7,695 nucleotides of DNA from a virus. Lineage: Duplodnaviria; Heunggongvirae; Uroviricota; Caudoviricetes. Under the pieces are notes generated by a model that worked only from the letters and a program-made list of their open reading frames with translations, was not told the origin of the DNA and ran no database searches. Below are positions 62 to 7,695 of the stretch, piece by piece (position 1 is the stretch's first letter; each line of letters starts with the position of its first letter). The translations under genes were made by a program, and so were the position numbers. Location: IMG/VR virus record IMGVR_UViG_2778261454_000007, positions 1 through 7,695 of that record. One strand, given 5' to 3'.

Positions 62-1270
62 TCAAAATCGGTGGAGCTGCATGACAAAGTCATCGGGCAT
101 TATCTGAACATAAAACACTATCAATAAGTTGGAGTCATTACCCGCCAGCATAGCGAAACAATATGTATCCCAATGGTCTGGTGAGTGCAGGTTGAGTTTT
201 TTCTTCATATCCTCCTTACTCATCACCTTCCATTGACCTGCGGAGTTAATCCCTACAGGGATTTTCGACGCTTCCTCAATAGTTTCATTACCCTTATCCA
301 GTCTCATACGACCAGATTTTACGGCCTCTGCGGCTTGAACGTTGGCATAAGCACGCTTATCAAAGTACAGGCTCTTATCTTCACGACTATGCATCTTTTT
401 ACCCCAGCGTATACGCTGTACGGTAATACCATAATGCTCGTACATCAGATCCGCCGTTGCTTTACCCAGGCCATCGCCGTCGATCGCTATGGTGATATTT
501 GGGAATCGCTCAGGATTACATTCTGCGAAAATTTTGGCGGCAAGCTGCGTTTCTGTAACGTCTGTGTATTCCAGCATTCGATAGTTGATTACACGGCGTT
601 TATTTCGCTGGCCGGACACCATCATGATATTGATAACGGACTTATCCCGTCCCGTACCACCAGCAACGTCCACACATGCAAGCCAGCCCCATCCTTTGGC
701 AATCTTGACTTTCCGCCGCGTTGCACGTTCAACCTCATCACGTCCAAGAAGGAAGCCATCCTGTGATTTAGGGAATAGGCCGCGTACCTTAATCATGTAC
801 ATAGGGTTATCACGCCCGCCGTACTCCGCCAGCTTCATTTTGATAAATGCTGGCGTTACCAGCGGTGATTCCTCACTGTTAAGCGTGATCGCCGTATAAA
901 CGCCATCAGGGTTACCAGGACGCTTGACCAGTTTATGGTGTGTATCGTAGAAATAGCCGCTTGGGCGTGTAGGCTGTGACAGCAATAAGATGCGGTTATC
1001 CTGTCCGGTAAGAGCACCGGTGATGATACCGAAAGCTCTATCACTGACACCGGAGGCTTCATCGATAATATACAGAAGATGATCTGCGTGTTCACCGGCG
1101 AGAGCTTCTTCACTTCCCAGACGAAAGCCCTTCGGTACTACAGTCCATACACCTTTACCAGTAACCTCATAGAAAGCGGTTTCTGTCAGAACAAAATAAT
1201 CAGCAAGCCATGGAAAACGGCTGGTGGCCGTAGCCCAGTTTATCTTGATGTACTTGAATATACCGGTCAT
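62..1270 (-). CDS. pacB: Terminase large subunit (pacase PacB-like), C-terminal 402-aa segment; same frame as 1277..1546 but separated from it by an in-frame TAG, so the intact gene would span 62..1546 (494 codons)
   Basis: Minus-strand ORF with ATG at 1268..1270. Contains a Walker-B-like [11 protein letters not shown] and a C-terminal acidic-residue nuclease-like region ([18 protein letters not shown]) typical of phage large terminases. It lies directly downstream of pacA, and the combined length of 494 aa matches my recollection of P1 PacB. Confidence 0.85.
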
Positions 1271-1276
1271 TACCTG

Positions 1277-1546
1277 CTAAATTTTGTTCGCAACGATAAT
1301 GGCACGGGCACCGGGATACATGATTATGAACAACATGATCATGATAGAAGTCATGTCTGATTTCCCGGTACCGTGACCAGACGAAACAGATGTCTTGCTA
1401 CCCTGTTCCTGCACAGACTCAATAATCAGATCCTGCTGCCAGGTAGGTGTTTTGCCGAACAAAACATCAGCGGCCGCAATCCAGTCATAACGATATAGCG
1501 CCACCAACTCGCGCCAACGTGGATCCGTTACGCAACTTCTGGCCAT
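1277..1546 (-). pseudogene. pacB: PacB N-terminal 89-aa segment terminated by an in-frame amber codon (TAG = revcomp of 1277..1279); gene appears disrupted
   Basis: ATG at 1544..1546 overlaps the pacA stop (TAATG). Carries the P-loop-like SGHGTGKS. Frame arithmetic: 1546 and 1270 are both 1 mod 3, so the two ORFs share a frame; the codons read ...ANKI-TAG-CAG-GTA-ATG(TGIF...). Confidence 0.8.
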
Positions 1547-2739
1547 TAATCATCATCCCCGTATAGCTTGCGGGTAACTTCTTCGTCTTCCTCCTCGTCT
1601 TCGTCTAGATCTTGTTCCAGCCATGGTTCGTTTGATACACCTTCAGTATCAACATCTCCATAACCGCCTGTATCAACGATATCGGCGATTTCTTCCCTAC
1701 GTTGCTCAATCCACAATGCAGCATCGGCGCGGCGGTTGGCGGCCCGTTCTCGCGCAACTTTGTCCAGATCTTCAAGAGAAGGGCCACCGACGGCTGTTTG
1801 CCTTTCCTCATCATCGGTATTGGTCTTAGGAGCACGCAGATCGGCTTTGATTTGCTCCAGCATCAGGGGCGGAACTTTCCCGCCATGCGCCTCGATGAAT
1901 TCAGCTGCTTCCAGCACTGACCAGTTATTTTCACGCTTTCGTTCGTATGCCAGCTTAACAATGCCAGCCTGCCCCATAGACAAAGCGTGCTTTTCCGCCT
2001 CCCGGCTTTCTTTTCGATAGTTATTCCGGATGCTGTAAATGGTGTTGATCAGACTGCTTATCTGCGCGGAACAGCTGTTTAGCATGCTCGCGATACGGTA
2101 TTCAGGCGGAGTACCTTCATCATCGTCTTTTTGCTGATCGCGCATTTCCTGCACCAGGCGAATACACGTATCCCTGGCGTTCTCCAGCATAAGGAGATGA
2201 GAAAGAGACTTTTCAAGAAGAGTGGTTTCCAGAACATCGGCCCCGGACCGACGCAACATAGCGCGCGCGGCCTTCCGCGCTTCAACGTTATCTATCAGGT
2301 AATCGCCAGCTTCGAATTCAAAGCGTTCACCATCATCATCCAGGGTGTCGCGTTCCAGGCGATCACGTAAGGTCCGGTGGGCGCGGGTGATCACGTCATG
2401 ATCATCTGAACGATCATTTATGCGCTTATTTTGGCGCTTCGCATTCTCGACTGCGGCACTGACAACGGCATTAACTCTCTGTTTTTCCGCTATTTCAGCC
2501 GCAATATGATCACCTGCATGTTGATCATTAGAGTGATCAATGATCATGCTTTTTAGTGGCTTCCTGACTGGCTTATTTGGCTTGCGGCTGTCCGCAGTCC
2601 TGGTGTCTTCTTTGAAGGCACGGAGATAACGACGTGCAGTATTAGGGTTAAGATTAAACTCGGCGGCATACTGTGCGATGGTGTAACCACCATCTCGCGC
2701 CAGGCGAGCAAAATTCTTCTTGTGATCGTCCCAGGTCAC
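1546..2739 (-). CDS. pacA: Small terminase / pacase subunit PacA (397 aa) with N-terminal HTH and highly acidic C-terminus
   Basis: 397-aa ORF; N-terminus [39 protein letters not shown] is HTH-like, and the C-terminus [13 protein letters not shown] is acidic. Apparent GTG start (revcomp of 2737..2739) preceded by AAGGAAG. The TGATC(A/G) hexamer clusters of a P1-type pac site lie inside its 5' third, and it is translationally coupled to pacB. Confidence 0.9.
2360..2546. other. pac-type packaging site: two clusters of TGATC(A/G) hexamers (Dam GATC sites) inside pacA
   Basis: Hexamers at 2360-2365 (CGATCA), 2388-2393, 2399-2404, 2411-2416 (CGATCA), then 2507-2512, 2522-2527, 2534-2539, 2541-2546 (TGATCA), with about 90 bp of hexamer-free DNA between the clusters. 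P1 pac is described as about 160 bp with seven TGATCA/G elements, four at one end and three at the other. Confidence 0.75.
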
Positions 2740-2824
2740 TTATGCTTCCTTTCGTAAAAACTCTTTTTGACGCGAGGGTAACGAAAGTCACATGTCAAAA
2801 GGCCCGGAACGGGCAAGCAATCAA

Positions 2825-5228: not shown

Positions 5229-5259
5229 CTCGTGTACTCGTTATGTGTACACAATTATA
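5229..5259 (-). promoter_or_regulatory. phd-doc promoter and operator: -10 TATAAT (revcomp of 5254..5259) followed by palindrome TGTGTACACA (5244..5253) and a second GTGTAC-containing imperfect palindrome (5231..5240)
   Basis: The minus strand reads GTTTATAATTGTGTACACATAACGAGTACACGAGGTGTTTATG. Phd is known to autorepress by binding palindromic operator sites that overlap its promoter. Confidence 0.7.
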
Positions 5260-5354
5260 AACTTCACAGGCATAAAGCACCAGCACTTTGCGGCTTAACA
5301 AACCTCTAGGCAGGTCATTCGTAGCCTAATGTCCGAACTGCTAAAGCATCCAAG

Positions 5355-5366
5355 TTGCTGTAGAAT
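5355..5366 (+). promoter_or_regulatory. Possible hsdM promoter -10 element TAGAAT (5361..5366); no convincing -35
   Basis: This is the only reasonable -10-like hexamer within 40 bp upstream of the hsdM ATG. Support is weak. Confidence 0.25.
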
Positions 5367-5398
5367 CACCGCCAATTACATAAGCCTGAAATAAGTGG

Positions 5399-6961
5399 AT
5401 GAAAATGACAAGTATTCAACAACGTGCAGAGCTTCATCGTCAAATCTGGCAAATTGCTAACGATGTCAGAGGTTCGGTCGATGGATGGGATTTTAAGCAA
5501 TACGTTCTGGGCGCGCTTTTCTACCGTTTTATCAGCGAAAATTTTTCCAGCTATATTGAAGCCGGTGATGACAGCATCTGTTATGCGAAACTGGATGACA
5601 GCGTAATTACTGATGACATTAAAGACGATGCCATCAAAACCAAAGGCTACTTCATCTACCCAAGTCAGCTTTTCTGCAACGTAGCTGCGAAAGCAAATAC
5701 CAATGACAGACTGAACGCAGATTTAAACAGCATCTTCGTTGCTATCGAAAGTTCTGCTTACGGTTATCCTTCAGAAGCAGACATCAAAGGTTTGTTTGCT
5801 GATTTCGATACCACCAGTAACCGCCTGGGTAACACCGTTAAAGATAAAAATGCCCGCCTGGCTGCGGTTCTGAAAGGGGTTGAAGGGTTAAAGCTTGGCG
5901 ACTTTAACGAACATCAGATTGACCTGTTCGGCGATGCCTATGAGTTCCTGATTTCTAACTATGCCGCGAATGCCGGTAAGTCAGGCGGCGAGTTCTTTAC
6001 ACCGCAGCACGTCTCTAAGCTGATTGCACAACTGGCAATGCACGGCCAGACCCACGTTAACAAAATCTACGACCCGGCAGCAGGTTCCGGTTCGCTGTTG
6101 TTGCAGGCTAAAAAACAGTTTGATGACCATATCATCGAAGAAGGTTTTTTTGGTCAGGAAATCAACCATACGACCTATAACCTGGCGCGTATGAACATGT
6201 TTTTGCACAACATCAACTACGACAAGTTTGATATCAAGTTGGGCAATACGCTGACTGAGCCGCACTTCAGAGATGAAAAACCGTTTGATGCCATCGTTTC
6301 TAACCCGCCGTATTCGGTGAAATGGATTGGCAGCGATGACCCGACGCTGATTAACGATGAACGTTTTGCCCCGGCTGGCGTTCTGGCCCCCAAATCCAAA
6401 GCTGACTTTGCGTTTGTATTACATGCGCTGAACTATCTTTCTGCCAAAGGTCGTGCTGCGATTGTCTGCTTCCCGGGCATTTTTTACCGTGGCGGCGCGG
6501 AGCAGAAAATCCGTCAGTATCTGGTTGACAATAACTATGTCGAAACCGTGATTTCACTCGCACCGAACCTGTTCTTTGGCACCACCATTGCCGTCAATAT
6601 TCTGGTGTTGTCTAAACATAAAACGGATACCAACGTTCAGTTTATTGATGCCAGCGAGCTGTTCAAAAAAGAGACTAACAACAACATTCTGACCGATGCC
6701 CATATCGAACAGATTATGCAGGTATTTGCCAGCAAGGAAGATGTTGCTCATCTGGCGAAATCTGTCGCGTTTGAGACCGTTGTCGCGAATGACTATAACC
6801 TGTCGGTGAGCAGCTATGTGGAAGCGAAAGATACTCGCGAAATTATCGATATCGCTGAGTTGAATGCAGAGCTGAAAACCACGGTCAGCAAAATCGACCA
6901 GTTGCGTAAAGATATTGATGCGATTGTGGCTGAAATTGAAGGCTGCGAGGTGCAAAAATGA
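5399..6961 (+). CDS. hsdM: Type I restriction-modification methyltransferase subunit HsdM, type IC (EcoR124I/EcoDXXI/EcoprrI family), 520 aa
   Basis: N6-adenine methyltransferase motifs are present: AdoMet-binding [10 protein letters not shown] (6071..6100) and catalytic NPPY (6302..6313). The N-terminus [25 protein letters not shown] and the 520-aa length match my recollection of EcoR124I HsdM. The stop overlaps the hsdS start (ATGA, 6958..6961). Confidence 0.95.
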
Positions 6962-7695
6962 GCGAGTTGAGTTATCTGGAAAAATTGCTGGATGGGGTTG
7001 AGGTTAAATGGAAAGCAGTGGGCGATATCGCCGGGTATTCAACAACCAAAGTTGATGCTGATAAACTTGATGCCACTTCATTCGTTGGCGTTGATAATCT
7101 CCTTGCTGATAAAGGCGGTCGCATTGATGCCACCTATCAGCCTAATACGGCACGTTTAACTGCCTATGAGCCAGGTGATATTCTTTTAGGTAATATTCGC
7201 CCATATTTAAAGAAAGTTTGGATGGCGGAGAATAATGGCGGGTGCAGTGGTGATGTCCTTGCTATACGCATTTTAGCAGACTGTAAAAAAATTATTAGTC
7301 CAGAATATCTCTACTATGCATTATCGTCGGATTCATTTTTTTCTTACAGTATGCAGCACGCTAAAGGGGCAAAGATGCCTCGAGGCAGTAAAGATGCAAT
7401 TTTAAACTATCAAATACCCATCCCTTGTCCCAGCGCCCCGGAAAAATCCCTTGCCATCCAGTCTGAAATTGTTCGGATTCTGGATAAATTTACTGAGCTT
7501 ACAGCAGAGCTTACAGCAGAGCTTACAGCAGAGCTTAGCATGCGTAAAAAACAATACAACTACTATCGCGACCAGTTGTTGAGTTTTAAAGAGGATGAGG
7601 TTGAGGGTAAGAGGAAAACCTTAGGGGAAATTATGAAGATGCGTGCCGGACAACATATTTCGGCTCATAATATAAATGAAAGAAAAGAAGAGAGT
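6958..7695 (+). CDS. hsdS: Type I R-M specificity subunit HsdS, 5' partial (246 codons; continues past window end): N-terminal target-recognition domain plus central conserved region with TAEL repeats
   Basis: ATG at 6958..6960 overlaps the hsdM stop. The conserved N-terminus [16 protein letters not shown] and the central region [49 protein letters not shown] are typical of type IC HsdS. There is no stop codon before the window end. Confidence 0.9.
7495..7536 (+). repeat. Tandem 12-bp repeat ACAGCAGAGCTT x3 (7501..7536) preceded by a 6-bp partial copy GAGCTT (7495..7500), in frame, encoding (T)[14 protein letters not shown] in the HsdS central spacer region
   Basis: Three perfect tandem copies are visible in the sequence. 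In the EcoR124I/EcoR124II system the copy number of this 12-bp unit (two versus three) sets the spacer length of the recognition site (N6 versus N7). Confidence 0.9.

Follow-up and report, generated by a model that had tools for sequence, protein, structure and literature searches.

The pacB gene of the 7,695-nt stretch of viral DNA analysed here (hereafter the window) is very probably a pseudogene, carried by an RCS47/phiW39-type P1-family phage-plasmid now reduced by degeneration to an ordinary mosaic plasmid. In addition to the in-frame amber codon described in the original prediction, we identified an IS1 insertion at the 3′ end of the gene, a second knock-out lesion that had been overlooked. 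Since IS1 has removed the native C-terminus, the amber codon is not the sole cause of the dead gene, and suppression alone would not restore pacB.

Results

The identity of the gene was assessed by alignment, gene order and profile searches. Window positions 143–2800 share 98–99% DNA identity with pacA-pacB of RCS47, JL22, SJ46 and phiW39, and the pacAB region shares 87.8% DNA identity with that of P1 and also aligns to several hundred IncY-type P1-like plasmids. The order lpa-pacA-pacB is the one annotated in P1 and RCS47, and P1 pacB (YP_006576.1, 494 aa; DNA pacase B subunit) corresponds to the window gene in synteny and in the positions of its Walker motifs. The alignment with P1 PacB and P1-like pacB that had been suggested as a check proved colinear and free of gaps over codons 1–468, with CAG in the relatives at the site of the stop. 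The PHROG profile phrog_2 (“terminase large subunit”) matched an intact relative (E = 2.9e-40) and, in the window gene, both the 89-aa piece (7.2e-5) and the 402-aa piece (1.9e-27). A Pfam scan returned no family match for intact PacB or for either fragment, and a PDB sequence search with PacB gave only matches at E ~0.8, to other large terminases. Because Pfam gives no match even for the intact protein, the gene is assigned to its family by P1 homology and PHROGs. The P1 homology and the lpa-pacA-pacB context agree with the earlier naming of the gene as the terminase large subunit gene pacB; judged by its sequence, it belongs by descent to the P1 PacB family but lacks what function requires, namely one polypeptide with both Walker motifs and a native C-terminus.

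The closest intact genes are of the RCS47/phiW39/SJ46 type (IncY, e.g. NZ_CP122909.1), at 98–99% DNA identity to the window. These have uninterrupted 494-codon pacB reading frames on elements with complete virion gene sets, and they share the downstream ash-icd-ant-c1 arrangement of the window’s element. Their pacB genes differ from that of the window at only 11–16 bases, nearly all in third codon positions, and A207V (window 927) is the single substitution relative to the nearest intact relatives besides Q90*. Because the differences lie almost only in third positions, with one amino-acid change besides Q90*, the inactivation of pacB looks recent. Relative to P1 pacB, the window has TAG for CAG at codon 90, and codons 469–494 are displaced by an IS1 composite transposon.

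The amber codon TAG is codon 90 of pacB, on the minus strand at 1277–1279, where the plus-strand base at 1279 is A; the surrounding minus-strand letters read ...GTT GCG AAC AAA ATT TAG CAG GTA ATG ACC GGT.... In the list of open reading frames, those at 1277..1546 (89 aa, MARSCV...SGHGTGKS...IVANKI) and 62..1270 (402 aa) lie in one frame, with TAG and two sense codons between them. The pacB genes of P1, RCS47 and plasmid NZ_CP122909.1 are 1,485 nt long and run for 494 codons without interruption; when the window was aligned to them, the sole change at codon 90 was C to T at pacB nt 268 (plus-strand G to A at window 1279), turning CAG (Gln90) into TAG. Codons 90–91 are CAG CAG in RCS47 and NZ_CP122909.1, CAG CAA in P1 and TAG CAG in the window. 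SJ46, phiW39 and two IncY plasmids each showed one mismatch to the 61-mer of the window, at position 1279, and codon 90 was CAG in all seven intact relatives compared base by base (P1, RCS47, SJ46, phiW39 and three intact P1-like plasmids, namely NZ_CP122909.1 and the two IncY plasmids). A single CAG-to-TAG transition, with plus-strand A for G at 1279, had been predicted from the letters alone and is what the alignment with intact pacB shows.

The stop divides the gene between its two nucleotide-binding motifs, also as originally predicted. Codons 1–89 (1280..1546, minus strand), annotated in RefSeq as the 89-aa “large terminase” WP_223648222.1, contain the Walker A-like SGHGTGKS (codons 56–63, window 1358–1381) upstream of TAG. 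Codons 91–468 (143..1276, minus strand), delimited by the reading frame and the alignment, contain the Walker B-like LLYIIDEA (codons 157–164, window 1055–1078) downstream of it, as well as ACVDVAGG (codons 290–297). Both Walker motifs are thus present, but on separate polypeptides. The first ATG after the stop is codon 93 (1268–1270).

The second lesion lies at the left edge of the window. Positions 1–142 are the terminal part of IS1, 100% identical to IS1 copies of P1 and other phages; this is the right end of an IS1A copy on the plus strand, with the terminal inverted repeat ...GGAGTCATTACC, as assigned from the identity to IS1, the annotation in the closest record and the junctions. Native pacB ends at codon 468 (...CFAMLA), and the fused frame continues into 26 codons and a stop read antisense from the IS1 end (62..142, minus strand; stop at 62–64). 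These 26 codons stand in place of the native acidic 26-residue C-terminus, and the complete native C-terminus (residues 469–494) is missing from the pacB reading frame. Residues 376–402 of the 402-aa reading frame match phrog_27209, which is unrelated to the terminase profile. The two reading frames had originally been taken to make up 494 codons of pacB; the total is correct, but only codons 1–468 are pacB and the last 26 are read from IS1, the agreement of 468 + 26 with the true PacB length of 494 being a coincidence.

The full insertion is visible in the closest complete record, Escherichia coli plasmid pLR-06-2 (145,376 bp; strain LR-06, a human isolate from Ecuador), where an 8,076-bp composite is inserted after pacB codon 468. 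It is bounded by two IS1A copies with their IRR ends outward and carries LysE, GGDEF, GntR-family, alcohol dehydrogenase and MFS genes and an EAL-domain fragment. At both junctions the GGTAATGACTCC... ends point outward, and the 8-bp CGCCAGCA is directly duplicated around the composite. Comparison of the junctions places one copy of this target-site duplication at 143..150 of the window; the second closes off the composite on its other side, where the last 81 nt of native pacB resume, displaced by 8.1 kb across the transposon. In an intact relative, the CGCCAGCA target site is present in single copy. The duplicated target, the continuation of the pacB 3′ end on the far side and the single site in the intact relative show that the insertion arose by simple transposition, not by a deletion. 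With two outward-IRR IS1A copies around a 6.5-kb cargo and the target directly duplicated on either side, the structure is that of IS1-bounded composite transposons. The duplication in pacB is 8 bp long; for IS1, 9 bp is commoner, and 8 bp has also been reported.

To follow the allele beyond the window, we used an exact-sequence look-up, which placed the 89-aa truncated product on 67 contigs in 132 index blocks, whose sources are NCBI isolate assemblies, SRA runs as assembled in Logan and metagenome assemblies at ENA. The TAG context was identical in 10/10 loci inspected, and the neighbourhood hsdRMS-phd/doc-pdcAB-lpa-pacA-pacB was common to all ten. A few SNPs, the length of hsdS and the number of 12-bp repeats distinguish these loci from the window and from one another, so they represent separate samplings of one lineage; in one of them, hsdM has undergone an IS-mediated replacement. 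IS1 is present at the pacB 3′ junction in all eight lineage contigs that extend to it, and both lesions, amber and IS1, occur in every informative contig. The contig logan:SRR8792727_82 (4502–13717) combines the same amber codon with a separate 9.2-kb Tn3-family transposon inserted in pacB at about window 970 (pacB codon about 193), with a 5-bp overlap that fits a target duplication and a cargo of MFS, isochorismatase, metallo-beta-lactamase-fold and AraC genes together with resolvase and transposase. This contig ends before the IS1 junction. The Tn3-family insertion is a third independent hit in pacB.

The window matches none of the inspected loci exactly. The nearest, GCA_021914785.1, shows 1 mismatch in 7,550 nt, and pLR-06-2 is 99.96% identical, with 4 SNPs, 1 single-base indel and one repeat-number difference; none of three collections (phages, PLSDB and complete E. 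coli genomes) contained the exact sequence of the window. The rarity of the allele was gauged by exact match to a 61-mer centred on the TAG site among records with this pacB type. One of 309 PLSDB plasmids and one of 302 complete E. coli genomes matched, the single match in both sets being pLR-06-2, and none of nine phage records did. The original prediction had allowed that related functional phages might carry the same stop, which the 0/9 result among phage records contradicts. The TAG allele is inherited in a circulating plasmid lineage: it lies on 67 contigs from independent assemblies, with differences elsewhere.

Despite the dead pacB, the genes pacA, lpa, pdcB and phd/doc and the pac site are intact. 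By its reading frame and annotation, pacA (1546..2739, minus strand) encodes an intact protein of 397 aa, and within it TGATCR hexamers form two clusters of four (2360–2416 and 2507–2546) where P1 has its pac site; in the window as a whole, this hexamer has 21 matches against about 10 expected by chance.

Several features of the adjoining restriction-modification region were also recorded. In hsdS, a perfect 12-bp tandem repeat GAGCTTACAGCA at 7495–7537 (plus strand) encodes TAEL in the central part of HsdS. It is present in three full copies in the window (3.6 by Tandem Repeats Finder), nine in pLR-06-2 and two or three in other lineage members. The repeat resembles that of type IC (EcoR124-like) systems, in which the number of copies sets the length of the recognition-site spacer. 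Given this likeness and the variable copy number, restriction-modification specificity may shift within the lineage. The hsdM gene (5399..6961, plus strand) is an intact 520-aa reading frame in the window and encodes 518–520 aa in other lineage members; in pLR-06-2, an extra A after window 5458 accompanies an annotation of hsdM as frameshifted. In RCS47 and NZ_CP122909.1, humD and hot (about 990 bp) lie between phd and the type I restriction-modification genes; this segment is absent at about 5229–5398 of the window, so that phd abuts hsdM.

The extent of decay of the carrier was examined in pLR-06-2, and this measure of gene loss may differ from the state of the window’s own replicon. The plasmid is a mosaic that contains BREX, cellulose-synthase genes, strAB, MobH/MobI, fragments of IncHI transfer genes and many IS copies, with 12 IS1-matching places. 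In a BLAST comparison with the intact 93.6-kb P1-like plasmid NZ_CP122909.1, 34.4 kb (37%) aligned, comprising the region around parB, ref-cre-c1-ant, pacAB-lpa-pdcAB-doc/phd, hsdRMS and a few neighbours, with the parAB genes themselves unaligned. The NZ_CP122909.1 segments at 33.4–49.5 kb and 59.7–93.6 kb had no syntenic counterpart in pLR-06-2, the sole BLAST matches within them being one of 391 bp at 87% and two weak ones to a paralogous icd/ant copy. These absent segments carry ban, dmt, tail, baseplate and fibre genes, holins, lysozyme, the head-processing protein (head protease) and the portal. pLR-06-2 retains a RepB-family initiator, ParA/ParB, phd/doc, c1, coi and a cre-like integrase, and its P1-derived ref, VRR-NUC gene, hsdM and a hypothetical gene are truncated or frameshifted. 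No tRNA genes, and hence no suppressor, were found on pLR-06-2 or in the window. These data support the suggestion of a decaying prophage that lives as a plasmid, as pLR-06-2 keeps about 37% of a P1-like genome, without portal, tail or lysis genes.

P1-like phage-plasmids that have turned into plasmids by losing genes are already on record (Pfeifer and Rocha 2024, PMC10879196). The plasmids in that study likewise kept a P1-type replication/partition backbone, lost phage core genes and gained accessory cargo and mobilisation functions (MobH/MobI), with no difference in kind from the present element. In the literature searched, we found no description of the combination of Q90amber and an IS1 composite in pacB.

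In RefSeq NZ_AP025548.1 (104041–105525, corresponding to window 62–1546), PGAP lists two separate protein-coding genes, a “large terminase” of 89 aa and a “terminase” of 402 aa, and the 402-aa model holds 26 residues translated from IS1.

Discussion

We propose the following course of events. A spontaneous C-to-T transition converted Gln90 (CAG) into an amber codon, at which translation is expected to stop after 89 residues, leaving a fragment with the P-loop and without Walker B or the nuclease region. The 402-codon reading frame could be translated, if at all, only by weak re-initiation at the ATG of codon 93, which lies six bases past the stop, and its product would have neither the P-loop nor the native last 26 residues. 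The 8.1-kb IS1 composite transposon inserted after codon 468, and pacase, that is packaging, activity is predicted to be lost. In P1, pacB is essential for plaque formation (EOP <1.2e-7; PMC10695390), and by analogy loss of packaging would follow from that essentiality. With most morphogenesis and lysis genes gone, no virions would be made and there would be no selection for an intact pacB. The lesions were probably neutral and tolerated in an element that seems to propagate only as a plasmid, and both are inherited vertically in a much-sampled plasmid lineage. This is ordinary pseudogenisation by a known process and not a new kind of system.

Two other origins of the stop had been raised in the original prediction, and both are rejected. 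A sequencing or assembly error in a gene that truly reads CAG might be suspected from a single base that differs from about 300 relatives; the same 89-aa product, however, recurs on contigs from a complete genome, draft isolates, Logan SRA assemblies and ENA metagenomes, and the loci that share the TAG context differ elsewhere. An identical truncated product on 67 contigs from independent assemblies excludes this explanation for practical purposes. A classical laboratory amber allele of P1 pacB, conditional-lethal and grown on suppressor hosts, has precedent in the amber mutants of P1 pacA and pacB (PMC10695390 Table 2), but here the odds are just as negligible: besides the 87.8% identity of pacAB to P1, there are 283 differences in the first 1,403 nt of pacB, the carriers are natural isolates and metagenomes, including the human isolate from Ecuador, and the gene holds an IS1 transposon in an element from which virion genes are missing. 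The proposal was accordingly rejected. With pacB truncated by IS1 and virion genes missing, we would predict no growth on either supE/supF or sup0 hosts.

It is also very improbable, if slightly less so, that pacB still works, either as a split terminase whose parts assemble or through read-through or suppression of TAG in the host. The ATG six bases past the stop makes termination and re-initiation conceivable, and PGAP annotates both pieces as CDSs and not as a pseudogene. Against this, the only Shine-Dalgarno-like element found by inspection of the sequence (AGGT) is one base from that ATG, too close by the usual spacing rules. The break splits the ATPase domain, with Walker A on one side and Walker B on the other, and the C-terminal 26 residues are derived from IS1. 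The stop is not conserved in functional relatives, with the TAG 61-mer in 0/9 phage and 1/309 plasmid records, and the plasmid has no suppressor tRNA and no virion genes to package into. Inactivation that was selected or co-opted rather than neutral is unlikely too, though it merits somewhat more weight than the readings above; it could have served to avoid self-cutting or to allow packaging by a helper phage via pacA and pac. In its favour, pacB was hit by the amber, by the IS1 transposon and, in one lineage member, by the Tn3-family insertion, and pacA, lpa, c1 and the pac hexamer clusters are intact. However, other P1-derived genes of pLR-06-2 are also broken, so pacB was not singled out, and the plasmid is riddled with IS elements.

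A particular form of this idea, which we consider similarly unlikely, is that the remnant acts as a “hitcher”, for which a P1-like helper phage, either resident in the same cell or superinfecting it, supplies PacB and capsids for headful packaging from pac, or that PacA together with the 89-aa stub interferes with incoming P1-like phages. The observation that points to it is the intactness of pacA, the pac site, lpa and c1. If it were true, loss of pacB would have been favoured by stopping the plasmid from cutting itself; in the self-cutting version, a dead pacase would shield a pac-bearing remnant when late genes are derepressed. Neutral decay remains the preferred reading for pacB. For the genes beside it, a residual or co-opted role is conceivable, because the inactivation looks recent and pacA, lpa, pdcB, phd/doc and the pac site have stayed intact.

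The practical consequence concerns annotation. Both RefSeq entries for this locus, WP_223648222.1 and WP_286330330.1, are pieces of a single pseudogene and do not belong in a count of functional phage genes, and tools that score phage-plasmids by terminase matches could wrongly call such remnants viable phages. Since the process itself is already described, the finding has little significance beyond this, and the lineage stands as a well-sampled example of a P1-like phage-plasmid becoming a plain, IS-laden cargo plasmid.
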